IMG/VR virus record: IMGVR_UViG_3300031673_016569 | Span: 3,185-67,184 of that record | Source: a virus | DNA: 64,000 nt | Reading direction: 5' to 3' (one strand) | In this document: one piece after another, positions 5,291 through 24,390 of the stretch | How the letters are laid out: every line of letters begins with the position of its first letter | How positions within the stretch are numbered: the first letter of the stretch is position 1 | The notes under the pieces: model-generated | The model's database searches: none | Told to the model about the DNA's origin: nothing | What the model saw: only the letters and a program-made list of their open reading frames with translations | Translations under genes and position numbers: made by a program

Positions 5291-6261
5291 TTCACGTCGC
5301 CCAGGAGCGAACAGGTCGCGCGCGTGGCGGATTCGATGTAATAGGTGAACACGTCCACCGCGCCCGCTGTCGCTGTCAAGGTCGGCACCGTGCCGCCTGG
5401 GAATTTCCAGAACGCGTTAAAGCCGAGCGTGAGCGGCGTGTACGGCGACCCCACTGGTTGCGTAATTACGATGCACCCCGACTGCCCCTGCACCGGATGT
5501 GATGGCGCGGAAAGCGTGGAGTTCTCCGTCATGGTCATGGTGAAGTTGTTGCCGGTGTCCAGGTCAATCGCGGTCGCGCCAGCCGTCGAAGTCAATCCCG
5601 CTGGCGCCGTGCCCCGCTGCGCCTTCGTCCATGACTGAACCACCCCGAGCTGCGCCAGCGCGGCGAGGAGCAAGGCGGAATCCTTGATAAGCGAACCCGT
5701 CGCGCCGTCGAACAAGACGATGGCGCTGTCCGTCGCGGCAATCGGCCCGATGACGTCGCCCGAACCCGAGCCAGAGGGGCCAGCCGGTCCCGTTGCCCCG
5801 GTCGCGCCGGTTGTACCGGTTGCGCCCGTCGGCCCTGTTGGGCCAGTCGGGCCCGCCGGCCCGGTCGGCCCGGCTGGACCCGCCAGAGTGTTGATGCCGA
5901 GGGTGGTGCGGTAATCGGTGTACGCGGTGACCACACCGCCAGCGGTGACCACCGTGTAGAGCGGCCAGCGAGGCGATGGCGGAGAGCCCAACGAGCCCAC
6001 CGTGAACGCGGTGGTGTTCTGGTACAGGTTGCCGAGGTCGTCGCACTCGATATAGCTGGTGGAATTGTCCGGTAGGGTTAGCGTGCCGTCGGCAATGTTG
6101 GCGTAGGTCTGCGGAAAGATGCCGCCGTAGTAGCCCCAGGTGAGGCCCGCCGTGGTCGGCGCTTTGCGCGCGAACAGGGAGTTCGGCGCCACCGCGTCGA
6201 AATTCTCGTTGATTTGCACCTCGGGCGAGGCCGAGGCGTTGATGGTTTGGAGTCGTGACAT
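5287..6261 (-). CDS. Tail fibre protein with short collagen-like segment
   Basis: (GPT/GAT)n repeats; C-terminal WKFPGGTVPTLT..AGAVD; position after tail tip genes. Confidence 0.75.
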   Translation of the reverse strand: MSRLQTINASASPEVQINENFDAVAPNSLFARKAPTTAGLTWGYYGGIFPQTYANIADGTLTLPDNSTSYIECDDLGNLYQNTTAFTVGSLGSPPSPRWPLYTVVTAGGVVTAYTDYRTTLGINTLAGPAGPTGPAGPTGPTGPTGATGTTGATGATGPAGPSGSGSGDVIGPIAATDSAIVLFDGATGSLIKDSALLLAALAQLGVVQSWTKAQRGTAPAGLTSTAGATAIDLDTGNNFTMTMTENSTLSAPSHPVQGQSGCIVITQPVGSPYTPLTLGFNAFWKFPGGTVPTLTATAGAVDVFTYYIESATRATCSLLGDVK

Positions 6262-6270
6262 TTCGGTGTC

Positions 6271-9200
6271 CTATGCGGCCTGCTGCAGCGGGTAGCCTCT
6301 GCCGACCGTGGCAGAGCGTTGGTAGACTCTGGCGTAAATGGTGTTGCCCGGCGTCAGGCCGTCCGCAATTTGCTGTGCCTCGGTGTACGGGGCCGTCGGC
6401 GTCGAGGAGGCGATGGTGCGCACCACGGTGGAATAGCTGCTGCCGCTGAAAATATCAATCTCGTACGATTCGGTGTCCTCGCCGAGCGGCACATTGATGC
6501 CTAGCGGCCCGATCATGCGGACCGCCAGGCGCGTGCGCCGCTGCCATTCGAATATGACGTTGTTCGCCGCGTCGCGGCCCGCCTTGAAAAGAATCGGCGA
6601 AAACGGTTTCAAGCCGATCGCGATGTCGGTGAAGCTGACTGCAACCGCGCTGCTCAAAGGCTGACCGAGGGTGACGCCTTTGTAAAACCGAGAGAGTCCG
6701 AGGTCGGTGTTGAGCATGAGCACCCGGCGCAGACCGGCGGCGCGCAACAGCACGCACCGCTCGCTTACGACGTGCCCGGTCGTCGCCCACTCCGTTCCAC
6801 GGCCGCCGCGCAGCAGACCGCTCAAGACGTAGACCCCGGGCGCCGTGATGGTCGCCGTGCGAAACTGGATCATTTCAGATCCGACCAGCATGGCGTTGAC
6901 CGCGAGGTCATGCAGCACATTGTCGCGCGTGTCGCTCGCCAGCGATCCCAGGCCAACATTGACCGTGACGGTGTTCGTTTCGTCGAACATCCGTCCGCGC
7001 GTCCAATCCCCGAGCGTGGTGGTGCACCAGCCGAACACCGCGCTTTCCAGCACGGTCGCTTTGCGCACGTAGGTCACATCGTCGACGCTGTTGAAAACCG
7101 CCGAGCCAGGATACAGGGCGGAATCGCCCTTGGTCGCGACGTAAAATCCGGCGTCGTTGTCCGAGTCCTGCAGGATCGGAACGTCCATCAGCGTCATCAC
7201 CGTACCCGCGACCGGAACGACCACGGTGCTGGAAGTGTAGTCGGCGCTGGTGATGCCCGTCTCGATAAGCGCCGATGCGTCGTCGAGCACCGCATCGAAG
7301 GTGAGCAGCGGATAGGCGTCGGTCTTTTTAACCAGGCGTGCTCGGAACATTGCGCCGTCCTGGCCCGTGAGCGTCACCACGTCCGTGGGCTCGAGCCGGC
7401 AATAATCTCCGAGCACCTGGATGGTGCTGCTCAATACGCTCGTGGCCGTGTCGAGCAGGATGCTGTCGGCAATAGCCTTGGCATCGGCCGCCGACATTCC
7501 CAAGGCCATGGAAAGCGCGTTGAGCGTTCCGCCCGCCGCGCTAATCAGGCGGTCGCTGTATTGCGTGTCGGGCTGGTAGTCGTTGTCGATGTTGATGTAG
7601 GTCAGCGCCACCTGGGCGGGGATCTCAAGCTCGTTCGCCTGCAGCAATGCGAGCGGCTCGGGCGAATCCGTTCCCTTGGTCGCGCCAAGATCCAGATAGG
7701 GAATGGTGGCGACGGAAGCGCCGCCGCGCGGTCGGAAATAAATCTTGTCGCTCACCGTCATTTCGAAAAAGTACGCGGACTCAAGCAGCTCGATGACTGA
7801 GCGCATATTGACGATCTGCGATACCGCCATGCACCGCACCGGGCGCGTGATTGCCGACAACGCGGCCACGTCAATTTGATTGACGCTTAACCCGGCGCGA
7901 ACGCATAGCGCCGACACGACGCTGGCAAGCGTCGGCGGCGCTTTTGCAATAGTTGCGGCGCCCCTTATCCACGGCCCATAGCCGGCGGGCGGCGTGTACG
8001 AAAAATACAAAGGGTCGGCAATAATCGTCGCGTACCCCGATCCAGTATAAGGCGCGAGTTGTGGCGCCGGCCCCCAATTTCCATTTGCCAATTCCGGGCA
8101 ATGGACGGTTCCCGCCGGTACCCCGCCAATCCATAGTTCAACCGTCAGCGCATCAAAATCAACCAACATTCCGCAATGTTGAAGCCCGCCGATTGACGCG
8201 CTTGAATATTGCGTTGCAATTCCGCCGCTGCGCGTGACGGTTGTCCCGGCCGGCCCGAACGGCGGGTAATATGTTTGATTGAACGAAAAGCCGATCGACT
8301 GGTCATCCCTGCCGAAACGGATGTCGCCCGTCCCGCCGTCATACCCCGGTTGATTTTGCGCGCGCCATTGATCGGTGCACAATCCGCACCCGCCGTACAT
8401 TAGATGAAATTCACAATACAATTTTCTGTCGACCCCGCTGGCGCTTTTGAATACGCTGGGCGTGAATCCCCAAAACTGTGGGTCAGGGTTTCCCCACTGG
8501 CCTTGATAGGTCAATGACGAATTGGGCTCCGCCCACGCCGGTTGCGGAAGCAACCACGGATAATATTGCAGCGATACGCCGCTGTAAGGCACACTCGGCA
8601 AATACGTCAACGGGTCAATCGCCGCGTATGCCTTTCCGCGCACGGCGCCGCTTTCGATCACTTCGAAGGTGAGGTTCGGAACCTGGCCGCTTTGCCCGAG
8701 CTGCAGCCCCTCGATGAACACGTATCCGCGCCCGCGATATGCCGGCGCCGCGCCGATGCCGACCGCGGCCTCATAGGTGGGGTCTGGAAGTTGGGTGTCG
8801 GACCCGGGATAGACCGTCAAGCGCGACCATTGCGTTGTCGCGATGCTCGCCGCCAGGCTTCCATCCGTTGCGGCAGAGTCCGCAGTGTAAATCAGCGCGC
8901 CGTTCAGCCAGATGCGGCCCACCCCGACAATGGGATTGTCCGACAGGCCGACAAGCATATCCATGTTGTAGCTGATCGTTGAGGTGGACACCCCACCACC
9001 GCCGCCGCCTTTTCCGCCGCCCGTTGTCGTGGTGGTGGTCACTGGTCTACGGTCAGTGTTCCACCATACTTGGCCGGCGACCGTTGCCGCGCCGCGAATA
9101 TACGGGATTGCCTGACCGTAGGCCGTGCCAGTGACGGTCAAGTCCATCAAGGATTGTTGCTGTCCTTGGGTCGGTTTTGCGAACGAGCCGCCCAGGGCCG

Positions 9201-9291
9201 AACCGAGCGACCAGCCGAGAAGCGCGCCCTGCGGCCCACCAATCCAAAACCCGAGCGCGGCACCGGCGGCGGATATGACGAGCTGTGCCAT
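6271..9291 (-). CDS. Central tail tip or host-specificity protein (GTA gp15-like)
   Basis: YG.AIP, PAYRG..Y, PNLTFEV, L.GLLRG.RGTE, W.RRTR, PLGE..E.Y motifs; follows DUF2460-DUF2163-NlpC. Confidence 0.85.
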   Translation of the reverse strand: MAQLVISAAGAALGFWIGGPQGALLGWSLGSALGGSFAKPTQGQQQSLMDLTVTGTAYGQAIPYIRGAATVAGQVWWNTDRRPVTTTTTTGGGKGGGGGGVSTSTISYNMDMLVGLSDNPIVGVGRIWLNGALIYTADSAATDGSLAASIATTQWSRLTVYPGSDTQLPDPTYEAAVGIGAAPAYRGRGYVFIEGLQLGQSGQVPNLTFEVIESGAVRGKAYAAIDPLTYLPSVPYSGVSLQYYPWLLPQPAWAEPNSSLTYQGQWGNPDPQFWGFTPSVFKSASGVDRKLYCEFHLMYGGCGLCTDQWRAQNQPGYDGGTGDIRFGRDDQSIGFSFNQTYYPPFGPAGTTVTRSGGIATQYSSASIGGLQHCGMLVDFDALTVELWIGGVPAGTVHCPELANGNWGPAPQLAPYTGSGYATIIADPLYFSYTPPAGYGPWIRGAATIAKAPPTLASVVSALCVRAGLSVNQIDVAALSAITRPVRCMAVSQIVNMRSVIELLESAYFFEMTVSDKIYFRPRGGASVATIPYLDLGATKGTDSPEPLALLQANELEIPAQVALTYINIDNDYQPDTQYSDRLISAAGGTLNALSMALGMSAADAKAIADSILLDTATSVLSSTIQVLGDYCRLEPTDVVTLTGQDGAMFRARLVKKTDAYPLLTFDAVLDDASALIETGITSADYTSSTVVVPVAGTVMTLMDVPILQDSDNDAGFYVATKGDSALYPGSAVFNSVDDVTYVRKATVLESAVFGWCTTTLGDWTRGRMFDETNTVTVNVGLGSLASDTRDNVLHDLAVNAMLVGSEMIQFRTATITAPGVYVLSGLLRGGRGTEWATTGHVVSERCVLLRAAGLRRVLMLNTDLGLSRFYKGVTLGQPLSSAVAVSFTDIAIGLKPFSPILFKAGRDAANNVIFEWQRRTRLAVRMIGPLGINVPLGEDTESYEIDIFSGSSYSTVVRTIASSTPTAPYTEAQQIADGLTPGNTIYARVYQRSATVGRGYPLQQAA

Positions 9292-9740
9292 TAGGGGGAA
9301 ATTCCACGCAGAGAATAGGCCGCAGCGAAGCGCATGGCCCTACTAAACATCAACCGCGTTTCGATCACCCGAGGCGGACGCGCGGCGAGTGCGGCGTGGA
9401 TGATGGACAGCGTCCCTAGGCTCGAAGGGTAGTCCCCCAAGAGGGCAAGGTGTTGCGGGTCCTCGTCCGTTATAAGCAACACCACGTCGCCCGGCACCAT
9501 TAACTCGCGCGGCTTTTGGTCCATGTATTCTCCGCACCAGCGCATCATGCTGCTACCGTCAGGCACTTGGGAGTAGGCAACCGTGTCGAAATCCTTGGAC
9601 ACCAACCCGAGCGCGCGCGCGACGCACACCAGTACCCCGGCACAATCCAGGCCAACACCTGGGAGTCGCCCCATGTGCTGAAACGGCGTGTCGATGTAGC
9701 TGCGCGCCAAGCGCACGGCGTCGGCCCTGGTGTGACTCAT
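9291..9740 (-). CDS. Tail-associated NlpC/P60 peptidase
   Basis: TPF.H.GR..GVGLDCAG, PGDV, H...IIHA. Confidence 0.9.
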   Translation of the reverse strand: MSHTRADAVRLARSYIDTPFQHMGRLPGVGLDCAGVLVCVARALGLVSKDFDTVAYSQVPDGSSMMRWCGEYMDQKPRELMVPGDVVLLITDEDPQHLALLGDYPSSLGTLSIIHAALAARPPRVIETRLMFSRAMRFAAAYSLRGISP

Positions 9741-10594: not shown

Positions 10595-11163
10595 AGGCGC
10601 AGTTCGGTGATGGCGATCGAAGTCCAGTCGTACAGCTCAAAGCTGATCCATTGCGGCATCATCTGGTCGATGTCGAAGCGCACGGGGAAATCGAACTCGC
10701 CCGTCCAGCTTGTCGGCGCGGGGCCAGTTCCCGTCACAATTCCGGTGGTGGTGTCCAGCGAATAAGTGCCGCTGCCGGCGAGTACCACGGTGCCGGCGAC
10801 CGGTTTGGAGATTTTGCGAAAGGTCGTCAGGGCGGCGAAGGTGTATTTTTTGTAAAGCTGCCAGTGGGTGCTGTCGATCGCAACGATCGAACCCTCGCCT
10901 GCGAGCGCCTGATAGTCGTTGAAATTTTTGAACCGGAATCCGTTGTGCATCCCGGCGACGCCGTGGAAAAACGCCAGCAGGTCGTCCAGCTCGGCCTGGT
11001 TGCGCACGCCCTGAATCACGTTGCCCTGGTAGAGCGGCATCGACCAATTCTGGTTATTGACTTCAAACCCGCCGGCGTTGCGCGCGATGCTGGTGGAATA
11101 ACCCGGGCCGAATTGAGAGCCGGCGCCGATCGACTCGGGAAAGCGCGGGGTTTCGATAAACAT
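10591..11163 (-). CDS. Distal tail protein (DUF2460)
   Basis: F.E.RFP...GP.Y.T, FF....G...GFRF, F.FPVRFD.D. Confidence 0.9.
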   Translation of the reverse strand: MFIETPRFPESIGAGSQFGPGYSTSIARNAGGFEVNNQNWSMPLYQGNVIQGVRNQAELDDLLAFFHGVAGMHNGFRFKNFNDYQALAGEGSIVAIDSTHWQLYKKYTFAALTTFRKISKPVAGTVVLAGSGTYSLDTTTGIVTGTGPAPTSWTGEFDFPVRFDIDQMMPQWISFELYDWTSIAITELRL

Positions 11164-13727
11164 CAGTTGTTCCTCGCCATTGCGCGCTGCACGCCGAGGC
11201 CCGCCGCCGCCGCGATCTGCGCCTGCGAGCGCGTGTCGGTCTGGCCGCTAATGGTGAACACGTTGGTCACGGTCACCGCGCCGCCCATCGAGCTGTTTGG
11301 GATGATGTTGCCGGAGGTCGAGGGCACAAACATTTCCGGCCCCTGCTCGCCGACCACGTAAGGGCTGCCAGCGGACACAGGGCCACCGCCCGCTGCAAAG
11401 GCAAGCTCCGCGACCGGCGCCGCTGCCTGGGTGCCAGGCCCGAGAATGTTTCCAAGCCAGGACATCGCGCCGCCAAGGTTGGAAGCAAGTGGGCCGGTAA
11501 TTTGCTGGCGCACCTGAATACGAATAATGTCCGCGATCACCGAGTCCGCGAACGTCTTGAAATTGAGCTTGCCGGTTTGGATGAACGTGACCAGCGCGTC
11601 CTCCATGTTTTTGAAGGCGTCGGTGAAGGCGGTTTTCGCCATCGCTGCGGCGTTGGTCGCGGAGTCCAGGTAGTCGCCGATGGCGTTTTTTGCTCCGTAC
11701 TCGAACGTCCTATTTACCGTCGAGGCCGAGGTTGCGATGTCGTCCAGCCCTTGCCTGAGCGCCGTCGCGCGCTGGATCTGGTCGGGGGTCATAGCCGACT
11801 TGTCGATCTGGTTGAGCGCGTCGAGCTCGATCTGCATCTGCGGGATGAAACTCTGGCGCAGCAGCAATATCCGCTGCCTGCTTTCGTACTCGCTGATGAG
11901 CCCCTGGTTCGCTTGGAGGGTGATCGCCTTTTCCTGATTGCCGAGGTCGGCCTGCGAGCGCCCGAACGCCGTCGTCACGTCGGCAAGCTGCGCGGTAATG
12001 AGGCCCGTCCGGATCAGGTCGTTCGCGATCTCGAGCCCGGCCGTGTCGCTATTGGCCGTCATTTTGTTGAGCTCATCGGTCCATTGCTTGTCCAGGCCGA
12101 CCAGGTACGCTTCGGTCGCCTTGCCTTCCCCGGTGAGCATCTGCTGCTCCATGGTGTTGCGGTCGAGGGTGTATTTGCGCCAGGCGTCGGTGGCGTCCTG
12201 CGCCGTTTTTGCGGAGATCCGTGATTCTTCTTCCATCGCGACGTTCAGCTCGCCCTGCACCTTGACGACCTTCGCCATAGCCGTGTACCTGGCCGCTGGA
12301 TTGGCTGCCGAGTCGACGCTTTTCTGGCCTGCCGCGAGTTCCCTTTGGAAGGTCGCTATCCTGGAATCGGCAGCCTGGTGTTCGAGCACGTCGCGCGCCG
12401 CGTAATAGGTCTGATAGCTGACCATGTTGTGCGCGAGCGCCTGATCGAGCAAAAGCTGCGCGCTCGCGATTCCGGCTTGCATCGTCTTGTCCAGCGCATC
12501 CTGCTGCGCCGTTACATAGGCTGCAAAAGCGGCGGCGTTCTTGCCGGCTTGCAACCCTCCGGTGGCATCGAAATTCGCCTGCGGCTTCGCGGGTGCCGGA
12601 CCGCCCTCCGTGGCCTTGAACACGTCCGCGGCCTTTCGCAACGCGATCTTGGCCGCAACCGCCCGTGTGAAGGCGGTCGTGTCCATGTTGTAGAGCGCGG
12701 CCATTTTCTGATTCGCCTCGACCGTCAGCTTCTCTTGGTCGTCCAGCAATTCCTTGTAGGCCGCGTCGCCTTCCTTCTTCGTGAGCCCGCCCGGCGTCAG
12801 GAAGGAGGCGATGATCGCGAGGTGCTTCGGCAGCAATTCCAAATCTGCGTCGGCCGCCTTGAAGCTCGACATGATCACGTCAAGCATCATGGGGATGGTT
12901 TTGAGGACGTCGATCAAGCGCGCCGCGCCCATCGCCGCCGCATCGGCCCAGCTCGTGATCGAGCCGTCCGCAGCGAGCGCCTTCGTCTCGCCCCCGAGTG
13001 AATCCGCCTCTTTGGCGCTGTCTGTCAATGCCGTAATGAACGACTGCATCGAGGGCAGCGCCGCGCTCACGACGGTATTCCAGAGGATGGTTGTCTGCTG
13101 ATTGAGCAACGCGACCTGGAGCGCGTATTCCTTGGCAGCCTCGGCCTGGGCCTTGGTAGTGGTCGCCTCGACGGGGCCAAGCTCCACCAGCGCCCTCATC
13201 GCCGGCAACTGCTCCGCGCCCGCTTTGCCCATTAACGCGACCGCAATGGCGGTCTTGCCTGCTCCGTCGGCGTAGCCGTAGAGCTGCTGCGCGATCTCGC
13301 GATAGAGCACCGATGGCGCTTTGAGGTTGCCCGCCGCGTCCTTGGCCGACAAGCCCAGGAACGCCAGCGCCTGGGTGGCAGGCTTGGTGATGTTGGCCGA
13401 TGTACTTTCGGCTTGGCTCAATTTGGTGAGTGCGATCGTCACGCTGTCAATATCGCCACCCGAGAGCCCGGCAAAGAACTGCAACTGCGAAAGCGCCTCG
13501 ATACTGGCCCCGGTTTTCTCAGAGGCCTGCTGCAGCTTGTCCATGCCGTCGGCGACCGAGTTGATTTTTTCGAGCAGCATCGTCGCGGAAAACCCCACGC
13601 CGATGGCGCCGAGCATGTGTTCGATGTTTTTCACGGCGTCGCCCACAATGCTCTGGGATTTCGCCATATCGGTCGTGAGCTGCGCCATGTTGGCTAACAT
13701 TTGGATCTCGAGCGTGCCAGCGATCAT
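11163..13727 (-). CDS. Tape measure protein
   Basis: 854 aa, Ala-rich and helical; C-terminal F..M.DAL..F..TGKLNF and GGPV..G.PY.VGE.GPE.F.P. Confidence 0.92.
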   Translation of the reverse strand: MIAGTLEIQMLANMAQLTTDMAKSQSIVGDAVKNIEHMLGAIGVGFSATMLLEKINSVADGMDKLQQASEKTGASIEALSQLQFFAGLSGGDIDSVTIALTKLSQAESTSANITKPATQALAFLGLSAKDAAGNLKAPSVLYREIAQQLYGYADGAGKTAIAVALMGKAGAEQLPAMRALVELGPVEATTTKAQAEAAKEYALQVALLNQQTTILWNTVVSAALPSMQSFITALTDSAKEADSLGGETKALAADGSITSWADAAAMGAARLIDVLKTIPMMLDVIMSSFKAADADLELLPKHLAIIASFLTPGGLTKKEGDAAYKELLDDQEKLTVEANQKMAALYNMDTTAFTRAVAAKIALRKAADVFKATEGGPAPAKPQANFDATGGLQAGKNAAAFAAYVTAQQDALDKTMQAGIASAQLLLDQALAHNMVSYQTYYAARDVLEHQAADSRIATFQRELAAGQKSVDSAANPAARYTAMAKVVKVQGELNVAMEEESRISAKTAQDATDAWRKYTLDRNTMEQQMLTGEGKATEAYLVGLDKQWTDELNKMTANSDTAGLEIANDLIRTGLITAQLADVTTAFGRSQADLGNQEKAITLQANQGLISEYESRQRILLLRQSFIPQMQIELDALNQIDKSAMTPDQIQRATALRQGLDDIATSASTVNRTFEYGAKNAIGDYLDSATNAAAMAKTAFTDAFKNMEDALVTFIQTGKLNFKTFADSVIADIIRIQVRQQITGPLASNLGGAMSWLGNILGPGTQAAAPVAELAFAAGGGPVSAGSPYVVGEQGPEMFVPSTSGNIIPNSSMGGAVTVTNVFTISGQTDTRSQAQIAAAAGLGVQRAMARNN

Positions 13728-15131: not shown

Positions 15132-15154
15132 GGCGTTTTCCTTTCAGTTGGCAT

Positions 15155-15187
15155 AAAAAAACCCGCCGGCAACATTTGCGGGGCGGG
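15155..15187 (-). terminator. Intrinsic-terminator-like hairpin in the late operon
   Basis: Minus strand CCCGCC...GGCGGG followed by T7. Confidence 0.5.
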
Positions 15188-15226
15188 CAGGTTGGAGAAA
15201 CAGGCGCGGCCTGTTCCAGCAATTCG

Positions 15227-15634: not shown

Positions 15635-15668
15635 GGCGGCGTTTCCTGCTGCTCATAATTCCAGGTCA

Positions 15669-16226: not shown

Positions 16227-16228
16227 TA

Positions 16229-16627
16229 TCAGCTCGAGTATTTTTCGCACATCATTTCGAGCATCCTGCGCCGGCCACGGATCTCGGCCGGGCCGCCGAC
16301 GATCTGGTAGATGACGTCGGTGTCGCCGTGCACAGTGATGCGCATAGACGAGTCGATGTCGTTGCGCCAGCGAATCCTGATGCGGGTTTGGTTTCGCGCC
16401 ACGGCGAGCCCCTGCAGCACTGACTCCGATCTGCTCGGCAGAGCGTCCTGCACTTCCGCGTGGAACTGCTCGGCCAGCGGCGGGCTCCCGGGCAACACGG
16501 CGAGCGGCACCCAAGTGATTACTTCGGTTCCGTAGTCCGCGTCCTGCGTGACCTGCTTTCGCTCAATGGTGATCAAGCGGTCTAGGGTTCCGGCGGCCAC
16601 GCGCACCCCTGCCCCAGAGCCGATCAT
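16229..16627 (-). CDS. Head closure (head-tail joining) protein
   Basis: AG.LDR.ITIE....D..YG.....W, IRIRWR.DI...MR; ATGA overlap with the TylF-like gene stop. Confidence 0.85.
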   Translation of the reverse strand: MIGSGAGVRVAAGTLDRLITIERKQVTQDADYGTEVITWVPLAVLPGSPPLAEQFHAEVQDALPSRSESVLQGLAVARNQTRIRIRWRNDIDSSMRITVHGDTDVIYQIVGGPAEIRGRRRMLEMMCEKYSS

Positions 16628-17157
16628 GGCGCGATCCAGTAGCACTGCATCGTGTCGGCGCAATCGACGACATGAAGGCCGGCCGCCTCGATCGCTTTCG
16701 CAACGCCTGGACAGTTCTGCCAGCGATAATCGTCGAACACGGCGATGCCGCCCGAGGCCATGCGCGGGCGCAGCCATACGATCGCGTCGGCGGTGCTTTT
16801 TTCAAGGTCCATGTCGACGTGCGCGAAGCTGACGCGCTTGTCGAAGGCCTCGGCGGACTGCGGGAACAGGCCGGCGATCAGCGCCACGTTGGCGGGCATC
16901 GCGTCTTTGACCGCGGCAAGCGATGTGTTTGCGAACTCGCCCGGCTTGTGGAAGTCGATTTCGCGCCAGGACTCTTTCGGCAACCCCTCGAACGTGTCGA
17001 ACCCATAGCACCGCTTTTCCGGGAAGTCGCCCGCCAGTGCTTTCAACGCGCCGCCCTGGTAGACCCCAAGCTCGACGATGCAGCCGGCGACGGGCCGAAC
17101 GCTCTCAGCCAAGCGCAACAGGGACGCGAGCTTTTTCGGTGTGAGCAGAATTTCCAT
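16624..17157 (-). CDS. TylF/MycF/NovP-like sugar O-methyltransferase
   Basis: G.IVELGVY.GG, YGFDTFEGLP, G.F..S, FAHVD.D...S, GG...FDDY...CPGV. Confidence 0.88.
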   Translation of the reverse strand: MEILLTPKKLASLLRLAESVRPVAGCIVELGVYQGGALKALAGDFPEKRCYGFDTFEGLPKESWREIDFHKPGEFANTSLAAVKDAMPANVALIAGLFPQSAEAFDKRVSFAHVDMDLEKSTADAIVWLRPRMASGGIAVFDDYRWQNCPGVAKAIEAAGLHVVDCADTMQCYWIAP

Positions 17158-18088
17158 GATGCTCCGCTATGAAAGTTTCGATCCGCGCGAGTGCGGCCGG
17201 AATGTCGATGCTCTTGTCGTGAGTGCAGTCCGGCGACCAGCACGAGCACGGCTTCACCGGCTCGATTGGTAGCCAAGGCGAATACCTGCCGCCCGCCGAA
17301 AACGATTCCTTGCCCTCGAAGCCGCCGAAGATGCAGATAAGCGGCGTGCTCACGGCCTGCGCGAGCACCGTCATGAATCCGGGCGACGCGAAAACCAGGT
17401 CGACCTTTGCGGTGAGCGCAGCGATGGTTTCCACGTCAAGCTCGCCGTGGTGAAATTCGGCGTCAGCTTTGAACGGTGGCCCGATCAGGTGTTCGCTCAC
17501 CATCGTCATATCGGCCAGGCTGATCACGAAGTACCGGTCGCGGATTGCGCAGAGGAGTGCGTGCGATGCCGCCAGGTCTGGATTGCGTGCGATCTTCGCT
17601 TGGGCTGATACCCGGTTCGCTTCTGAAATAGCTACCGGCGGGCGGTAGATCATCAGCGGCCTGCCGTCGCCTAACTCCATGAGCACGGCGTCCGCCTTCA
17701 CGGCCCACGCGGGTGCGATTGGCAGACGGAAGTCGCCCACCGCCGCCGCGCCGCACACGTTCGCCATTGTCCCAAGCACCGATCCGTGAAATTGCACTCC
17801 ACGCGGCATACGGTGCAAGTAGCCGTTCGTCAGCGTCCGCGCGCCAGGTGGCGGCAGCGTGCGCCCGTACAGCGCGACGGTGCGTTGCTCGTTTTTCGCC
17901 ATCCAGCCAATCGGCGACTTCAATGGCAGCAGATGCAGCTCGGGCATGTCCCAAAAGAGTTGCGGCCAGGACGTTTTCAGCCAGACCTCGTTTTGACGCA
18001 TCAACTCGCGCACGATGGCGCGCTCGTGCAGGTTGTCACCCAGGCCGTGCATCCCGTTAAGGACGAGCGGCGGCAAAGGGGAGGGCAT
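17105..18088 (-). CDS. GT9 (heptosyltransferase)-like glycosyltransferase
   Basis: N-terminal HGLGD; C-terminal AL....DLV....G....LAQAV.TP.ICIFGG and PC.C...C cluster. Confidence 0.72.
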   Translation of the reverse strand: MPSPLPPLVLNGMHGLGDNLHERAIVRELMRQNEVWLKTSWPQLFWDMPELHLLPLKSPIGWMAKNEQRTVALYGRTLPPPGARTLTNGYLHRMPRGVQFHGSVLGTMANVCGAAAVGDFRLPIAPAWAVKADAVLMELGDGRPLMIYRPPVAISEANRVSAQAKIARNPDLAASHALLCAIRDRYFVISLADMTMVSEHLIGPPFKADAEFHHGELDVETIAALTAKVDLVFASPGFMTVLAQAVSTPLICIFGGFEGKESFSAGGRYSPWLPIEPVKPCSCWSPDCTHDKSIDIPAALARIETFIAEHHGNSAHTEKARVPVALG

Positions 18089-18746
18089 CGCTTAACTCCA
18101 ATTTTGGAAAGCTGTCGATGGCCGAGCCCGGCGAGCAGTTGAGCACCCGCACACCGGCTGCCTTGATTGCGTTCTCGCCCGCCGAGAAGGCTTTTCGGTA
18201 TTCGGCATAAGCCGCGACGGGCTCACGTTTCGGATGGTCGCCGAACCAATGCGTTTTGCCGGTGGGCTCTCGCGCATCGAATCCGAGCAAGACCACCGTC
18301 TTGGCGCCGGCCAGGACGGCGATGTTGAGTGCCTGGTAGCCCGAGTTGCTGCCGGTGACGATCTTTTTCGGGTCGAGCGACAATCCGAAGCCATGGCCCC
18401 GGCCATTGGCGTTGCGCAGTATGTGCACCGCCGGATCCCTGATGTTCGCGCCGCTGTCGGAGATCGAGCATTTTTGCCCGGCGAACGACTGAAAGTCCGG
18501 ACGGTCCTTGTGCCAGCCCCACCATTCCGAATCGGCGAAGTAGCACACGTCGGCGAACGGCGCCAGGCGGTAGGCGTCGTTGATTGCGATCACGCGCACC
18601 GCGCCGGCCTCGCGCGCCTCGCGCACCTGCTCGACCTGCTCCACGGTCAGACTCGGCCCGCCTCCGATCAGCACCGCCGTCGTTTTGTCCCATTCCCGCG
18701 CGACTTCGCTAAACGAGGAGCCGGGCCCCCGGCGCAAGACGCTCAC
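18057..18746 (-). CDS. Maf/DUF115 (MptE-like) putative glycosyltransferase
   Basis: AVLIGGGPSL, VIAIND, D..YF.D, NSG..A..IA...GA..VVLLGFD, HWFG, V.NCS..S.I..F. Confidence 0.7.
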   Translation of the reverse strand: MSVLRRGPGSSFSEVAREWDKTTAVLIGGGPSLTVEQVEQVREAREAGAVRVIAINDAYRLAPFADVCYFADSEWWGWHKDRPDFQSFAGQKCSISDSGANIRDPAVHILRNANGRGHGFGLSLDPKKIVTGSNSGYQALNIAVLAGAKTVVLLGFDAREPTGKTHWFGDHPKREPVAAYAEYRKAFSAGENAIKAAGVRVLNCSPGSAIDSFPKLELSDALPFAAARP

Positions 18747-19444
18747 GCGATCGACAGATCGGCGCGCTCCGGCTTGACGATCTGCTGCGCAACATCGAGC
18801 AGCAGCGGCATCATCACCGGGTCGCGGTCATAATTGGCTTCCGCCCACAGCTTCATGGCCTGCTTGAAGCGCGTCGGCACGACGCTCGCATCCTGTTGCG
18901 GACTGCCGAGACGATTGGCAAACCCGGCTCGGAACGTCACCCGGAAGCCCGCGAAAATACCGGTTGTCGGCCAGGAAATTCCGTTCAAGGGAACCAGGCG
19001 CGGCCACTTCGAATTTGCCTCGCGCAGCTCATAGGTCGCAGGGTCAATCTCCGTCTCGACGCCGGCCTGATCGACCGACACGAAGGAAGTCAGCGCGATG
19101 ATCGGGGCTTTGCGCAGCATGATTTCGCCGGATCTCATCCAATGGAGCCAGTCGCGCTCGCCGAACCAGCCACGTCCGAAGCCGAGGCCTGGCGTGTAGC
19201 CCGAAACGCGATCACCCCCGATGGAGTAGCCGCCCAGGCGGCTCCCGAGCGTCAGGCGCCAGGTCTGGTCGATCAGCGCGCGGGCGGTGTAATCCTCGAC
19301 CCATTCGCGCGCGGCAACGATCAGCGTCGTGATGTCGTCATCTTCATCGGTGACGGTCATGAAACAGCGCAGGTGCCGCTTCATTTCATCGAGGGTCACC
19401 GGCTCGATGTCCGGTTGGGTTACACGTTCAAGCGTGAAGTTCAT
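18743..19444 (-). CDS. Head-tail connector (gp6-like adaptor)
   Basis: P..EPVTL.E.K.HLR....EDD.I..LI.AARE.VE.YT.RALI.QTW, V.F.AG, VP...KQA. Confidence 0.9.
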   Translation of the reverse strand: MNFTLERVTQPDIEPVTLDEMKRHLRCFMTVTDEDDDITTLIVAAREWVEDYTARALIDQTWRLTLGSRLGGYSIGGDRVSGYTPGLGFGRGWFGERDWLHWMRSGEIMLRKAPIIALTSFVSVDQAGVETEIDPATYELREANSKWPRLVPLNGISWPTTGIFAGFRVTFRAGFANRLGSPQQDASVVPTRFKQAMKLWAEANYDRDPVMMPLLLDVAQQIVKPERADLSIA

Positions 19445-20742
19445 TTGAGTCGTACCGGCTCGCGCGCGGCGGGCGGGGCATCCGTTTTGCTGTCCTTGCC
19501 GCGCGCACCCTCTTTCACCATCAGACGCCAGGCCGCGGAAGTGCCCGGCTTCTCCGTGGTCTTTTCCTGGCAGTGCCAGGCCGAGCCGCCCCAGGTCACC
19601 ACGTCGCCGCGCTCGAATTCGCCCTCGCGCCATACCTCGCGGTACAGAAGCGCGCTGGTCTTGATCTCCCGCACCAGCGTGCGCCCGCTCGTGTAGTGCG
19701 TGGTGCGGCGGATCGTGCGGCCATCGTCCAGCGTTTCCTCGGATTCGTGGTCAATGCCGTTCATGCTGACGACCCAACCGGCTTTTTCCAGGCCGGCGTC
19801 GGTGATCGGATCGGTGTTGCGGATCGCGCGAATGGTGCCGCCACGGTGTTCTGCGAAGGTGCCGCGCGGATAGTTTCTCGCTTCGTCGATCGCAGGCAGG
19901 ATGTCGATCGCGAGTGCGTCGCGCCCGGCGTCTCCATCCTTACCGTCGCGCCCGTCGCGACCGAAGGCGCCAGCGGCGCCGGGCTCACCGGGTTTCCCAT
20001 CCTTGCCCCGGAGCGCCTCAAGCCATTGGAGCTCCGTACCGGCGAAGCCCTTTTCGACCGCGAGCTCGTAGGCGCTTTTGCCGTTCGCGCCGTCGCGCCC
20101 AGGACTGCCGTCTCTGCCGGGCTCGCCATCGGCGCCCGCTTCGCCAGGATCGCCCTTTTCTCCACGCTCGCCCGCCTGGCCCGACTCACCCGGTGAGCCT
20201 GGCAGACCGCGCTCGCCGACCGCGCCGGGCTCGCCTTTTGCACCCGGTGGACCCTGCTCGCCCGCCGGACCTTGATCGCCCTTTGCGCCGACTTCGCCTG
20301 CCGGGCCTGCCTCACCCTGTGCGCCGGCCTCGCCGCGCTCGCCCTGCGGCCCCGGATCGCCCTTGACGGACTCACCGGGCGCACCGCTGTCGCCCTTTTC
20401 GCCGCGTTCGCCGACTGCGCCGGGCTCACCTCTTGCGCCCGGCTGGCCTTGTTCTCCCGGCTCACCCTTCGCACCACGCTCACCGGGCGTGCCAGGAACG
20501 CCTTTTTTCCCGCGCTCACCGGGCGTCCCGGGCTCGCCTTTTTCTCCGGCCTCGCCGCGCTCGCCCGGCGCGCCCTGGTCGCCAGGGTCGCCAGTGTCAC
20601 CCTTTGGCCCCGCAGGAATGGCGCCGAGCTTACGGTCGAACTCGTCAATCCGCGTGGACAGTGGAGATATGGCGCTAGCAACGTAACGCCTGACCGCCTT
20701 AATCATCTTTTTTGCGAGCAACTCGACGTCAGGCAGGTTCAA
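19441..20742 (-). CDS. Collagen-like head-associated fibre protein
   Basis: About 69 Gly-X-Y triplets in three blocks; C-terminal YR.VW..G.F.RGD.VTWGGS.W; TTG start overlaps the portal 3' end. Confidence 0.8.
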   Translation of the reverse strand: MNLPDVELLAKKMIKAVRRYVASAISPLSTRIDEFDRKLGAIPAGPKGDTGDPGDQGAPGERGEAGEKGEPGTPGERGKKGVPGTPGERGAKGEPGEQGQPGARGEPGAVGERGEKGDSGAPGESVKGDPGPQGERGEAGAQGEAGPAGEVGAKGDQGPAGEQGPPGAKGEPGAVGERGLPGSPGESGQAGERGEKGDPGEAGADGEPGRDGSPGRDGANGKSAYELAVEKGFAGTELQWLEALRGKDGKPGEPGAAGAFGRDGRDGKDGDAGRDALAIDILPAIDEARNYPRGTFAEHRGGTIRAIRNTDPITDAGLEKAGWVVSMNGIDHESEETLDDGRTIRRTTHYTSGRTLVREIKTSALLYREVWREGEFERGDVVTWGGSAWHCQEKTTEKPGTSAAWRLMVKEGARGKDSKTDAPPAAREPVRLK

Positions 20743-22129
20743 GTTCGAGCCCCTTGATGAATAGCTCGGCGAGCACGGCTGCGTCGATTGAGTCCGCTTT
20801 GTCGTTTGCCGCCGCCGGAACCGGCATGGGCGGCGCCCCCGGCGCGGGCGTCATTTCAGGCTTCGGCGCAGCACCGGCGAACGGATCGGCCTTCGCGTCG
20901 CGCTTGGCGAGGGCCGCGAGCGAGTAATTCTGCTGCTGCAGGTAGGGCGACTCGCCACCGGCAACCGGCTGCATGTTTTCCGCGGCGCGCGCTTCGTTCG
21001 GCGACATCCAGCCGCCGGTGATCGCCTTGCTCTTGGTGTCGTAGCGCGTCGCCGTGTCCATGCGCATGAGCCCGTCCAGGTCGAACTCGGTGTAATAGCC
21101 CCCTGGCAGGGACAGGCCTTCGTCGAGGCACGCCTCCACCGATTCAATGAGGGTCTGCAGGCAGTCGGAGTAGTAGGTCTGGTTGAGCGATTCGACGCTG
21201 ACGCGCACCGGTTCCGGCCCGCCGAGCTTGAATAGCGGAACGTGGAAACAGCGCGCGACGTCCTCGACCGTCCATTTCAATTGCTCGATCAACTGCGCTT
21301 CGCCCGCTGGGATCGTCATCGCCTCGTACTTGAGGCCGTCGCCGAGGACCGCGAGGCGCCCGAAGTTGGCACCGCCGTAATTCTCTTCCCAGGCCTTTTT
21401 GATGCGTCCCGCGGTCTCGTCGCTGATCGTGCCGGGCGCCGAGAGCGCCCCGGACGGACGGCTCATGTTGTCGAAGAACTTGGTGCTGTTGCCCTGGATG
21501 CGGTTGCCCATGGTCGCGGACATGCCGCAGGCGTAGATCGGCGAGACGCCGACGAGCGGGTGCCACAGGCAGACCATGCGGTCGTGGATGATTTCGGATG
21601 CGGGCACCGTGATCGCCTCACCGAGCTGCGACAGGTGATCCACGGCGAGCTTGTAATAGACGCTGCCGTCGTCGGCCACGAGCGGGGTGACGCGCTGCGC
21701 GTCCAGAATATAGAGGGTGTTGACGATGCCGCGCGCGTCGCGCTGCTTGAGCGCGAAGGTGTTGCCATAGAGCAGCTTCGACACCACCCACTGCTCCATG
21801 AACTTGATGCGGGTCTGGTAGCGGTTCGGCTTCGAGAGCACCGGCAGAAAGGGCGAAGCGGTCTTAACCTCAGTCGCGATGCCCTTGTCGTCCTGATCGA
21901 CGAGCTTGATTCTGAGTTTCCCGATGTCGGCCGCGATGATGGTGACGCAGGCGAACACCGCCGAAAAGGCCAGCACTTCGCGCGGCGCATCGACTTCGAT
22001 ATTGCGCTGCCAGGCGCCGGCGAAGGACTCCCGGATCAAGCCGAACCAGCCGCCGGTCGAATTGACAGCGGAGAGGGTCTGCGCCTTGACGCGCTGCGCG
22101 CGTGCAATGTCGAAGCCGAAGATGCGCAT
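20729..22129 (-). CDS. HK97-family portal protein
   Basis: V.AC...IA.DI.KL, L.KPN, LL.GN, IIH.R...L.G.SPI, VARCFHVP, W.SPNEAR..EN..P..GG. Confidence 0.95.
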   Translation of the reverse strand: MRIFGFDIARAQRVKAQTLSAVNSTGGWFGLIRESFAGAWQRNIEVDAPREVLAFSAVFACVTIIAADIGKLRIKLVDQDDKGIATEVKTASPFLPVLSKPNRYQTRIKFMEQWVVSKLLYGNTFALKQRDARGIVNTLYILDAQRVTPLVADDGSVYYKLAVDHLSQLGEAITVPASEIIHDRMVCLWHPLVGVSPIYACGMSATMGNRIQGNSTKFFDNMSRPSGALSAPGTISDETAGRIKKAWEENYGGANFGRLAVLGDGLKYEAMTIPAGEAQLIEQLKWTVEDVARCFHVPLFKLGGPEPVRVSVESLNQTYYSDCLQTLIESVEACLDEGLSLPGGYYTEFDLDGLMRMDTATRYDTKSKAITGGWMSPNEARAAENMQPVAGGESPYLQQQNYSLAALAKRDAKADPFAGAAPKPEMTPAPGAPPMPVPAAANDKADSIDAAVLAELFIKGLELEPA

Positions 22130-22130
22130 A

Positions 22131-22364
22131 TCAGGCAGCCTTGTGCCTGGTGCTGTATTTGCGTTTTTGCGCGATCACAGCCGCGACGGGTGGGGCCGAA
22201 GCGTCCATGTGGCGCGTTTCGTACTGCCCGCCGGGCTTGGCCAGCTCGGCTCGGCCGAGCAGCTCCAGGGCGCTGACATATTCGTCGTGGGCCTCGAACG
22301 CCTCGCCTGCCGCGATGGAGCGGCCGTCGTAGACGTGGGCGACTTTGGAGATCATGGTTTTCAT
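22131..22364 (-). CDS. Small head-module protein
   Basis: 77-aa ORF with AAGGA RBS between capsid and portal genes; G..F and Y.TR.M motifs. Confidence 0.65.
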   Translation of the reverse strand: MKTMISKVAHVYDGRSIAAGEAFEAHDEYVSALELLGRAELAKPGGQYETRHMDASAPPVAAVIAQKRKYSTRHKAA

Positions 22365-22382
22365 GGAAAGTCCTTGAAGAAT

Positions 22383-22408
22383 CGGGCGCGCCTTCGCAGG
22401 CGCGCCCG
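22383..22408. other. Perfect 11-bp stem-loop after the capsid gene
   Basis: CGGGCGCGCCT-TCGC-AGGCGCGCCCG, 8 nt beyond the capsid stop; no U-tract. Confidence 0.6.
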
Positions 22409-22416
22409 CCGAGCTA

Positions 22417-24390
22417 TTACGTGCCGGAGACGTATGCAGCGCCCGAAATAAACTGCGCTGCCAGTGCACGTTTCTTCGCCCAGTTGATGAACCGAACGGC
22501 CTTGATCGCGAGGCTGTTGGTCTGGAACATGCTCACCACCGTCGTCGGCACGGTACTGTCCGTCGATTGGTTCGTCGGGTTGTCGAGCATCTGGATCGAC
22601 GCCTCCGAGCTGGTGCTGATCGTCACCTCGCCGTCATCTGCGAGCAGAATCTCCGGCGCGTTGATCAACGCGATAATGGACCCGGCCACCGGGCTGCCGA
22701 CCACCTTGGCCGACATCGAGGTAACCACCGGCAGCCCAAACAGCGAGCCACCGAGCATGTTGATTTCCGGGTACAGAGGCTGGCCCAACGGGTTCAGCAT
22801 CATCGAGAGCGCGAGCGCCTGCGTCGGCGGCATCACCCACACGCCCTGGCTCGGATCCAGATTGATAGCCAGCCAGTTGTCGATCAGCGTCTGCACGTCG
22901 ACGCGCAAATCCGCCGACGTGGTGCCGCTCGCCGGGACCGCGGTGACGCCGTTGAGGATGGACGCCGGCGACACATTGGCGACCGCTGCGATATCCGGGT
23001 TGATGAACTGCTGGTCCAGGAACTGCGCGATGGACTTCGCGAGATCGTTCCGAACCAGCATTTCCGCCGACGGCGAGGAGCTGCGCACCAGCTCGTCGTC
23101 GATCGCCACCAGGCCGGCCGCTTTCGCGATGCCGAGCGTGATCGCCGTGGTGCCCAACTTGCTCATCGGAACCGGCTGGCCCTGCCCGACCCAATACGCC
23201 GAAGAAGGCGCGTTCTGGCCGGCGATGCGGACGTTGAACGGGACTTTCGTCAGGTTCGGTATCTTGCCGATGATCGTCTGCGGACGCAGAAACTCGATGA
23301 ACTCGGTTACGAGGTTCTGCGCGTACACCAGCTCCGAGGCCCAGGTCGCGGTGGTCGTGTCGCCAGTGGCCACAGCGGCCTTGAACACCTGCGCGAGCTC
23401 GGGCGAGCTATCCATCCACGCCTTGTTGTTCTGAACGAGAGAAAGCGCATCGTTCAGGTTGCCCTTGGCGCGTAGCAGCGCCATCGCGTAGCGCGCCATC
23501 TTGATGCCTGGCTCGAGGCGCGGCGGCTTCACGCTGATGATGCCGGTGGTGCCGCGCAGCTTTGCCGCAGCGTCCGGGCCCTCCGACTTGGCGGGGATGA
23601 CCTCAACGGCGCTCGCGATCATCTGCTTCTCGTGCTCTTTCAGGCGCACCAGGTGATCGTCGACCGCCTTGACCTCGGCCTTGACGGTGTCGTATTCCTC
23701 GGTTTCGGCTTCGTTCAGCGTGCGGCCCTCATCGGCCGCCTTGGACATGATTTCGTCCATGCGCGCCTTGCTCGCCGCGCGCTTCGCCTCGAAGGAGGCG
23801 ATTTGTTCTGCTATCGTTTTCATGGAGGTTCCTTTCGGGAAGTTGGACTGCGTTCCCGAAGCGCCGGGAGTGGATTTCAAGCGCACGACCGGGCGCTGCC
23901 GATCGCCTGACGCGGCGAGCAGGGCTTCATCTGCGGACTTGATGGTGGTAATGCTTGCGTCCACGTTCGCGGGGATCGTGACGCAGGAGAGCTCAAGCCA
24001 CTCCCATTTGAGGAAGTGTTCGGCCCAGGTGTCCTTGATCTGCGAGGATTCAATCGGGTTGAACCCGATCGACATCCCCTTGACGAGCTTGTACTTGATC
24101 GACTGCCAGGCATCGTCGATCCGGTCTTTCAGCGTGCCGGGCTCGGGGATTTTGGCAAACTGCGCCTGGAAGGTGATGCCCTCAGGCGTGGCCTTGGCCG
24201 CGACGACTTCGCCGACCGGCTCGCGCGAGTTGTGTTGCCAGAGCAGGGGGATCGGCAAGGTGAACTGCGCGCCCTCGGGCTCGACGATGTCGCCCATGCG
24301 ATCCGTGCTCGGCGTGGTCGCGACGCCCTCGATGATGCGTTGCTCCTCGTCGACGCTCTTGACGGTAAAAAGGCTGTAGGCTCGCTTCAT
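22417..24390 (-). CDS. Fused HK97 prohead protease and major capsid protein
   Basis: Protease: G.ATTP..DR.GDIV, LLWQH, G.SIGF, ELS.V.IPAN. Then a coiled-coil linker and capsid motifs FIEFLRP.TI, A.WVG.G, L.GLPV, S.FQ.N..A. Confidence 0.93.
   Translation of the reverse strand: MKRAYSLFTVKSVDEEQRIIEGVATTPSTDRMGDIVEPEGAQFTLPIPLLWQHNSREPVGEVVAAKATPEGITFQAQFAKIPEPGTLKDRIDDAWQSIKYKLVKGMSIGFNPIESSQIKDTWAEHFLKWEWLELSCVTIPANVDASITTIKSADEALLAASGDRQRPVVRLKSTPGASGTQSNFPKGTSMKTIAEQIASFEAKRAASKARMDEIMSKAADEGRTLNEAETEEYDTVKAEVKAVDDHLVRLKEHEKQMIASAVEVIPAKSEGPDAAAKLRGTTGIISVKPPRLEPGIKMARYAMALLRAKGNLNDALSLVQNNKAWMDSSPELAQVFKAAVATGDTTTATWASELVYAQNLVTEFIEFLRPQTIIGKIPNLTKVPFNVRIAGQNAPSSAYWVGQGQPVPMSKLGTTAITLGIAKAAGLVAIDDELVRSSSPSAEMLVRNDLAKSIAQFLDQQFINPDIAAVANVSPASILNGVTAVPASGTTSADLRVDVQTLIDNWLAINLDPSQGVWVMPPTQALALSMMLNPLGQPLYPEINMLGGSLFGLPVVTSMSAKVVGSPVAGSIIALINAPEILLADDGEVTISTSSEASIQMLDNPTNQSTDSTVPTTVVSMFQTNSLAIKAVRFINWAKKRALAAQFISGAAYVSGT

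Follow-up and report, generated by a model that had tools for sequence, protein, structure and literature searches.

Why should a single tripeptide, Gly-Ser-Pro (GSP), recur in several unrelated virion proteins of one phage, and is its recurrence linked to the transferase genes that lie among the genes of those proteins? This question is raised by a 64,000-nucleotide stretch of viral DNA (positions 3,185 to 67,184 of IMG/VR record IMGVR_UViG_3300031673_016569; the whole stretch is henceforth referred to as the window), in which a siphovirus structural module occupies 3761-26660 on the minus strand, as do all the genes and sites of the module given below. An earlier reading of the letters alone (henceforth referred to as the sequence-only reading) had proposed that GSP sits in short loop insertions of the capsid, the adaptor, the head-closure protein and, twice, a tail fibre, and that the Ser residues of these loops are acceptor tags for the products of a glycosyltransferase cassette. 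Comparing the window with its relatives, we found that inserted loops bearing Ser-Pro in the capsid, adaptor and head-closure proteins are conserved and accompany a gene for a 229-amino-acid (aa) Maf-like transferase (18057-18746). From these comparisons and from fold models we lean, by a little, towards the view that the loop Ser of G-S-P is the acceptor for this phage enzyme.

Translation of the window established that G-S-P is encoded at all eight of the sites that had been put forward (8/8), on the minus strand and in the frame of the named open reading frames (ORFs). As the eight sites use eight different codon triplets, GSP recurs at the level of the protein rather than as a repeat in the DNA, just as the sequence-only reading had it. 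Equally borne out were the absence of GSP from TerL, from either integrase and from the 733-, 808- and 1257-aa proteins (0 found on translation, TerS included) and the presence of two GSP in the secretin remnant at 2848-3570 (minus strand). GSP was then counted within the 67-kb virus record, which was the source of the comparison to the exclusion of a host proteome background, with expectations calculated from composition. The 16 virion proteins (5,790 aa) contain 8 GSP against 2.15 expected (Poisson P 0.0017), which ranks GSP 15 of 8,000 tripeptides, those above it being mostly collagen triplets; with the collagen-like protein removed, the count is 6 against 1.89 expected (P 0.013, rank 47 of 8,000). 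No GSP was observed in 39 translated non-structural ORFs (12,311 aa; 2.36 expected), a set from which the secretin fragment had been excluded, and because of that exclusion the fair non-virion count is 2 rather than 0, both in the secretin fragment. The enrichment in structural over non-structural proteins is nominal and not significant when the choice among 8,000 tripeptides is allowed for, and the window-only statistics were therefore dropped as a carrier of the claim. Taken alone, the window shows no more than chance.

Relatives were collected by several routes: homologues of the 18057-18746 protein led to 24 loci; of 161 relatives from a head-closure alignment search, 80 viral loci were kept, in addition to 10 genome loci; of 456 relatives from a capsid alignment search, 80 loci were kept; a tail-fibre search gave 7 loci; and, later, an enzyme search in genome contigs gave 19 new loci. 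Because the search patterns lay outside the GSP loops, the retrieval of head-closure and capsid homologues is not biased toward GSP. Loci sharing exact 60-mers were merged, which reduced 200 loci (denoted by L numbers) to 136 clusters. A hidden Markov model of the enzyme separates the loci cleanly into those scoring 167-337 bits (henceforth referred to as class A) and those below the gap, which hold either distant relatives of 28-122 bits or no match. Since the contigs of the relatives are from Pseudomonadota, the host is probably Gram-negative.

In the head-closure, or head-completion, protein (16229-16627; PF05521, E 1.1e-19; PHROG 25), GSP (16481-16489) lies within an 11-residue insertion, LPGSPPLAEQF (16463..16495). 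Among 78 distinct head-closure sequences, 22 have an 11-residue insertion of the form x-P-G-S-P-x-V-A-E-x-x, two have PSNP and 54 are without the insertion, L037 and L100 holding shorter extra segments among the latter. A class-A gene is found in the same locus for 17 of the 22 GSP-insertion sequences and for none of the 54 without the insertion (0/54); the loci of the remaining five (5/22) contain at most 5.2 kb of upstream sequence, below the 4.5-10 kb gene spacing seen elsewhere. Of the 25 insertion-bearing strings, 23 keep G, S and P unchanged and the other two read PSNP. One PSNP lineage, L027, was considered as a joint loss of gene and motif, and this was ruled out when a whole-contig search found the gene just beyond the locus. 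In L075-L077 and L079, two clusters with only a distant Maf-like gene, GSP occurs elsewhere in the head-closure protein, at residue 23 (YGSPVESW), and the adaptor of L076/L077 likewise has a GSP, at residue 113 (STGSPARIT), either by chance or as a second tag arrangement.

The major capsid protein is encoded in the window as part of a 657-aa fusion with the prohead protease (22417-24390; PF04586 and PF05065; PHROG 617, E 1.5e-143), and its GSP (22690-22698) lies in a loop insertion, KVVGSPVA (22684..22707), of the HK97-fold domain. An x-G-S-P-x-x insertion occurs at three places on the capsid tree and was not found in cassette-free capsid homologues. By rows, 12 capsids have both gene and GSP, 3 the gene only and 14 neither, and among those with 6 kb or more of downstream sequence no GSP capsid is found in the absence of the gene; L123 and L127, candidates for GSP capsids without the gene, were set aside as their contigs stop short of the adaptor region. 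One of the 14 rows with neither, L175, is nested among GSP sisters and reads GSA, and its fragment contig is without the gene. GSP is kept in 28 of the 33 distinct insertion-bearing loop strings. In an AlphaFold2 model of the capsid (377 aa), GSP belongs to a coil at residues 283-290, flanked by strands 273-277 and 293-297, and its 10-residue block has a predicted local distance difference test score (pLDDT) of 77 against 95 on each side, an indirect hint that the loop may be accessible. GSP also occurs at other capsid positions inside G-x-P motifs (L154, L155, L156, L159, L163 and L172; residue ~238) and, likewise in a family-wide G-x-P motif, at about residue 124-131 in L175, L181 and L185.

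The third loop is that of the gp6-like head-tail adaptor (18743-19444; PF05135; PHROG 442; profile match to the RcGTA adaptor 6tba, E 2.3e-10), in which the insertion NRLGSPQQD (18890..18916, with GSP at 18899-18907) lies between an AGF/AGY strand and a VP..K.A helix. Across homologues this loop takes the form x-[G/S/A/T]-S-P-x-x-x, from the AGY strand to the next V-P. Of 73 adaptor rows, gene and loop occur together in 26, the gene alone in 7 and neither in 40; the loop alone occurs in none (0). The x-S-P loop is present in 25/28 insertion-bearing adaptor strings and reaches adaptors just 24-30% identical to that of the window, and it was found neither in the 40 adaptors of loci without a class-A gene (0/40) nor in the solved RcGTA adaptor 6tba. 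An insertion of ~70-90 residues, apparently a whole extra domain, occupies the loop position in L092-L095 (adaptor ORF of L092, 2125-2949) and in L207 (10425-11231). That an insertion of this length is tolerated there is an indirect hint that the loop position of the adaptor faces solvent.

Since the sequence-only reading implied that GSP insertions should co-occur with the cassette in homologues, the three proteins were also considered together, and in each of them this is the case: no judgeable locus has the loop without a class-A gene. In the distinct loops that bear Ser-Pro, S and P are invariant (head closure 23/23, adaptor 25/25, capsid 28/28) and the flanks vary, Thr never being found at the Ser position among these 76 loops; Ser is preceded by G in 23/23, 16/25 and 27/28 of them, respectively. 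In a simulation, three random inserts of 11, 9 and 9 aa had any tripeptide in common in 17 of 200,000 cases. One short motif with a G-S-P core occurs in insertions of three unrelated proteins, and its co-occurrence with the enzyme is strong in raw counts, with phylogenetically independent contrasts too few for significance. An unbiased scan for tripeptides present in at least 60% of class-A clusters and in at most 10% of evaluable non-A clusters returned 13, of which GSP alone qualified in two protein families; capsid GSP as such was found in 13/16 class-A and 4/17 non-A clusters, and these 4 sit elsewhere, in conserved G-x-P motifs.

A replicate set, with the window's own cluster left out and collagen-like ORFs removed, gave a similar picture. 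The 41 class-A clusters (147,521 aa) contain 72 GSP against 36.5 expected, about twofold, whereas the 35 non-A clusters (123,136 aa) contain 25 against 26.5 expected; the P value overstates the case here, because homologues are not independent. Expressed per protein, GSP amounts to 0.57 in the capsid, 0.56 in the adaptor and 0.77 in head closure of class-A clusters, compared to 0, 0.08 and 0.07 in non-A clusters. In the 19 later-fetched loci, 37 GSP were found against 21.7 expected: all three tags are present in L201, which lies on a Pseudoduganella chromosome, the capsid tag was seen in L202 and L203 and the adaptor x-S-P loop in L205 and L216, and L207 is ambiguous. The distribution of the tags is a mosaic, with several class-A phages keeping just one or two of the three.

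A number of observations weigh against an acceptor role for the loop Ser, beginning with the non-significance of the window on its own. The loops and the gene lie in one ~8 kb module, and are for that reason co-inherited. Tree-aware tests of their association are underpowered: the capsid tree offers 4 independent gene-differing pairs (2 the same way, 0 opposite and 2 with no difference, P 0.5) and the adaptor tree 1 gene-differing pair on supported branches. The gene can also be present without a tag. There are 7 gene-only adaptor rows (7/73), L015/L040, L132 and L157 are adaptor exceptions of this kind, and both PSNP head-closure lineages (L027 and L040) do have a class-A gene. Among the class-A clusters in which at least one of the three proteins is seen, 5/35 are without a clear tag, namely L168, L022, L148 and L153, in which only the capsid is seen and is without its tag, and L023, the adaptor of which reads GDSPSD; these five have the lowest enzyme scores (167-224 bits). 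No tag was seen in L206, L209, L210 and L213, which are later-fetched loci with more divergent enzymes. Outside class A, a distant Maf/MptE-like gene (28-122 bits) is the immediate neighbour of the head-closure gene in many phages that have no insertion. Such genes hence seem to be common in head-tail modules well outside the GSP group, and the presence of one does not in itself imply GSP loops. In the capsid, GSP can be conserved for structural reasons without the gene, since the G-x-P motifs DGSPxFPG and VGEGSPxPV keep it in clusters with no detected Maf-like gene, several of which are short contigs. In stoppers of the SPP1 gp16 type one loop plugs the channel, and the head-closure insertion would be internal if it were equivalent to that loop. 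Glycosylation, the acceptor residue and surface exposure are themselves inferred from sequence comparison and fold models, and no sequon is known for bacterial Maf (PMC11339370).

It is from these observations that the most serious competing explanation draws, according to which the loops are structural turns or contacts of one lineage, co-inherited with the Maf-like gene through their shared module, and the Ser is unmodified. Gly-Ser-Pro fits a tight turn, and the non-significant tree-aware contrasts, the GSP conserved in G-x-P motifs of gene-free capsids and the 7 adaptor rows with gene and without loop are all as this explanation would have them. However, it does not account for the same tripeptide in separate insertions of three unrelated proteins, an outcome as rare by chance as the simulation indicates, or for the strictness of the Ser, with neither Thr nor Ala in 76 distinct loops despite drifting flanks. 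Nor does it account for adaptors at 24-30% identity having the loop only when the gene is present, or for L175 losing both the gene and the Pro. We consider purely structural loops unlikely, albeit the likeliest of the alternatives.

The preferred reading, in which the loop Ser is a sugar acceptor, also depends on the identity of the 18057-18746 product, which we assign as a Maf/MptE-like (GT42-like) transferase (PHROG 4603, E 1.4e-39). Against Pfam PF01973 it scores 23.0 bits, under the gathering cut-off of 34.6; since a precomputed PF01973 hit exists for many of its close homologues, we regard its link to the family as real, if marginal at the sequence level. Sequence searches of PDB chains with this enzyme and with the adjacent 327-aa protein returned nothing significant, and it was the comparison of folds that proved informative. 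An AlphaFold2 model of the enzyme, built on a 31-sequence alignment (pLDDT 92.8), has its best match in 5mu5_A, a Maf flagellin glycosyltransferase, to whose central catalytic domain it aligns (Z 17.2, root-mean-square deviation 3.8 over 200 residues, chain 256-517), followed by the archaeal pterin pyrophosphokinase MptE (HPPK 8sd5; Z 11.4), SteA (Z 10.7) and Cst-I (2p56; Z 9.9), with thiamine pyrophosphokinases of the same fold superfamily at Z 6.2-8.7. Foldseek places Cst-II first (probability 1.00, template-modelling (TM) score 0.46-0.49). Within the alignment G30, D72, G136, L153, D157 and H166 are invariant and S135 is nearly so. The enzyme aligns with the central part only of the 632-aa Maf, the flanking N- and C-terminal domains being absent, and homologues measured 172-296 aa in a search restricted to near-length sequences. 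There are 699 homologues at E <= 1e-10, and all of the 120 listed are unnamed or 'hypothetical'. A complex prediction for the enzyme and head-closure families (score 0.00, mark 0.32, run without controls) speaks neither for nor against binding.

Adjacent to this constant gene of the cassette are two variable members: a 327-aa GT9-like, or heptosyltransferase-like, protein (17105-18088; PHROG 6804) and a 177-aa TylF-like O-methyltransferase (16624-17157; PF05711, E 5.7e-13). The former has no Pfam match; its ESM Atlas neighbours are named ADP-heptose:LPS (lipopolysaccharide) heptosyltransferase, and a PF01075 cluster matches at TM 0.70. Both genes are found only in some class-A loci. Others have, in the 4-10 kb from the enzyme to head closure, a putative DUF6716 transferase, a GT9 domain, FkbM or other methyltransferases, or a second Maf-like copy, and some have the Maf-like gene alone. 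A constant Maf-like gene, accompanied by transferases and methyltransferases that differ from locus to locus, is in keeping with a priming step whose product is then elaborated in variable ways. Tandem Maf-like paralogues, followed by methyltransferases, are found in L038 (2708-3418 and 3435-3980; ~295 and 193 bits) and in L103 (2482-3186 and 3212-3769; 280 and 188 bits). Distant Maf-like genes are exemplified by L049 5885-6589, L069 6601-7284, L061 309-833, L079 5934-6548, L085 5165-5779, L066 7288-8019 and L037 6667-7281, and there are others.

The same fold matches bear on whether protein is the target at all. The cassette could act on a non-protein target, such as the host LPS or lipo-oligosaccharide core or the capsule, in lysogenic conversion through its GT42-like and GT9-like enzymes, with the GSP loops unrelated to it. 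Going by what the fold matches are called, lipo-oligosaccharide cores are the substrates of Cst-II and of GT9 heptosyltransferases, and morons are often inserted in late operons. This is improbable, in our view, given that the best fold is that of a protein-glycosylating Maf (Z 17.2 versus 9.9 for Cst-I), that the 18057-18746 gene stands in frame order between those of the adaptor and head closure, in a row of ORFs that overlap or abut, and that the co-occurrence of gene and loops would be left unexplained. It is also conceivable that the loop Ser takes another modification, for example a phosphate-linked group, or that the loops dock the Maf-like protein as an assembly or decoration factor. 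Ser-Pro is a classical kinase motif, and the fold superfamily includes the pyrophosphokinases listed above (HPPK 8sd5 at Z 11.4 and the thiamine pyrophosphokinases). We think such chemistry quite improbable, with Maf the nearest structure by a wide margin and with neighbouring genes that are transferases and methyltransferases of sugar-tailoring types. Finally, a chance pattern chosen after the fact, for which one could cite the window ranks of 15 and 47 of 8,000, the secretin fragment with its two GSP and the 3/8 sites that are incidental, is very improbable and already disfavoured by the twofold enrichment in 41 independent gene-bearing clusters and its absence from the 35 without the gene, by the conservation of three loops and by the recurrence of the tags in newly fetched loci.

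If the loop Ser is an acceptor, the system might work as follows. The acceptor would be the Ser of the G-S-P core ([G/S/A/T]-S-P in the adaptor) in the short loops inserted in capsid, adaptor and head closure, and cytoplasmic O-glycosylation would accompany late gene expression, preceding assembly or coinciding with it. The 18057-18746 product corresponds to the catalytic domain alone, minus the flagellin-docking domains of bacterial Maf, and from their absence we infer that what it recognises is a short, portable tag in a loop rather than an entire protein. The sugar donor may be CMP-Kdo or CMP-nonulosonic acid, a guess made because Maf enzymes use CMP-Kdo and CMP-Neu5Ac, and the variable neighbours, the GT9-like protein and O-methyltransferase here and their counterparts elsewhere, could extend or methylate the sugar. 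Joined together, these steps would describe environmental Gram-negative siphophages with a two-part transferable system, in which a minimal, domain-stripped Maf-like enzyme is paired with a portable G-S-P tag and the variable neighbours diversify the glycan. Any virion protein could then acquire the tag through a short insertion, as the tail fibre perhaps newly has, and the first sugar would come from the precursor pool of the host LPS core (CMP-Kdo, then ADP-heptose). We put this composite picture forward tentatively and would sooner expect part of it to fail.

Phage virion glycosylation and Maf-type O-glycosylation are both known already, and the system proposed here would be a variant of these. 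Maf enzymes O-glycosylate surface-exposed Ser/Thr in flagellin loops (PMC11339370), and one Maf accepts CMP-Neu5Ac and CMP-Kdo (PMC11339370; bioRxiv 10.1101/2020.06.03.131540). The phage enzyme shares the catalytic-domain fold of Maf (PF01973/Maf_flag10; 5mu5; Z 17.2) and is proposed here, like Maf, to be a cytoplasmic enzyme with a structural, self-assembling protein as its substrate and an exposed, loop-borne Ser as the residue modified. Maf needs two acidic residues and one Ser (bioRxiv 10.1101/2020.06.03.131540), to which the invariant D72 and D157 and near-invariant S135 of the phage family may correspond. Unlike Maf, the phage enzyme is 229 aa rather than 632 aa and has no N- or C-terminal domains; its gene lies in a head-tail module and not by flagellin or nonulosonic-acid genes, none of which was found among the window ORFs scanned; its proposed targets are capsid and neck; and its system has a short conserved motif, of a kind that is not known for Maf (PMC11339370).

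In mycobacteriophages (Che8 and related F1 phages), phage-encoded glycosyltransferases place glycans on major capsid proteins, and virion glycosylation by a phage's own enzymes, which is documented for a few mycobacteriophages, shields the capsid from antibodies there (as cited in PMC11256854). The present case differs in its probably Gram-negative host, in the fold class of the enzyme (Maf/GT42-like) and in the position of the cassette, which is between the adaptor and head-closure genes rather than near the genome 3' end; it is also set apart by a defined tripeptide tag common to three proteins, in a comparison that covered hosts, enzymes and gene positions. The fold likeness extends to the GT42 enzymes Cst-I and Cst-II of Campylobacter (Foldseek probability 1.00; Z 9.9), the acceptors of which are lipo-oligosaccharides and not proteins and to which the match is weaker than to Maf. 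We take the N-terminal Gly-rich GGGPS-type motif to be similar to that of Cst, where the profile match to Cst-II is not significant (E 0.47-0.99). Among bacterial O-glycosylation sequons, that of Bacteroidetes, D-(S/T)-(A/I/L/V/M/T), marks the acceptor Ser/Thr on many proteins, and systems of this type work via periplasmic oligosaccharyltransferases. The G-S-P core resembles such sequons in being a short motif and differs in its proposed use by a cytoplasmic, sugar-nucleotide-dependent phage enzyme. A literature search consisting of listings plus one passage search found no paper linking Maf or DUF115 proteins to phage virions.

The choice of acceptor site by Maf-type enzymes is an open question (PMC11339370). 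If the loop Ser is indeed the acceptor, the phages would provide a natural minimal enzyme-plus-tag pair in which Maf acceptor specificity is directly testable; a widespread unnamed phage gene family would be accounted for; and a tool for site-directed glycosylation of proteins and phage particles might follow. Should the composite picture hold as well, a sequon would for the first time be defined for a Maf-type enzyme, and glycosylation of capsid plus neck would be described for the first time in phages other than actinobacteriophages.

The remaining GSP sites of the window present a different picture. In the collagen-containing tail fibre (5287-6261), the first site (site 92), around GSLGSPPSP (5974..5997; GSP 5980-5988), is an 8-residue indel shared by the window and L197 only and missing from L198, the closest cassette-bearing relative; it is possibly a recently gained tag. 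The second (site 271), QPVGSPYTP (5443..5451), is not conserved, and L194-L196 read QHASAAK---TL there. Both fibre sites may be recent tags or chance, and as conserved tags they fail, not being kept even in L198. The claim that the five main sites are loop insertions accordingly stands for the capsid, the adaptor, head closure and fibre site 92 (4/5) and falls for fibre site 271, which lies in a stretch 3 residues longer than in L194-L196. Weaker cases of the sequence-only reading, namely the tape measure, the collagen triplets and the DSP, did not survive either. The tape-measure (11163-13727) GSP at 11361..11369 was rejected as a tag, since it is part of the conserved C-terminal motif AG[S/T/R]PY[V/M]VGE.GPE, with S, T or R before Pro and no insertion, and the two GSP of the collagen-like protein (19441-20742), at 20101-20109 and 20191-20199, were rejected as unconserved G-X-Y repeat triplets, the S of which is kept by fractions of only 0.04 and 0.10 of the homologues aligned; all three are incidental. 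The DSP of the tip protein is not conserved (S at 0.33). Of the eight GSP sites, then, three show the pattern of conserved enzyme-linked tags, three are incidental and the two in the fibre are undecided between these.

Protein identities given from the letters (capsid fusion, adaptor, head completion, tail fibre, tape measure and collagen-like protein) were upheld by Pfam and PHROG matches. The module runs in the order TerS, TerL, protease-capsid fusion, a small ORF, portal, collagen-like protein, adaptor, three non-structural genes, head-completion, gp10-like, tail-completion, tail-tube, chaperone, tape measure, distal tail proteins resembling those of gene transfer agents and two fibres, a Gly-rich/LamG fibre being the last structural item. 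The 22417-24390 fusion joins a prohead serine protease (PF04586) and an HK97-type capsid (PF05065) in a single ORF, and the portal gene comes after the capsid gene, not before it. The C-terminal domain of the collagen-like protein matches the C-terminal part of portal-annotated phrog_1289 and phrog_2271, and this protein could be a fibre on the neck or portal. Just past the last tail-fibre gene, the 240-aa secretin fragment (2848-3570, minus strand) holds the C-terminal Secretin domain only (PF00263, E 7.5e-25), perhaps marking where the phage ends or where a host gene was disrupted. On the other side of the module, window positions 27000-64000 are a mixed mobile-element or defence-like cargo region, with genes for a Dam-like/GNAT fusion, RadC, DUF932, ParB, ParA-like, a Dcm methylase, the 733-aa HATPase protein, an AAA_25/Toprim pair, two tyrosine integrases, and PIN, HEAT-repeat and DUF5677 proteins.

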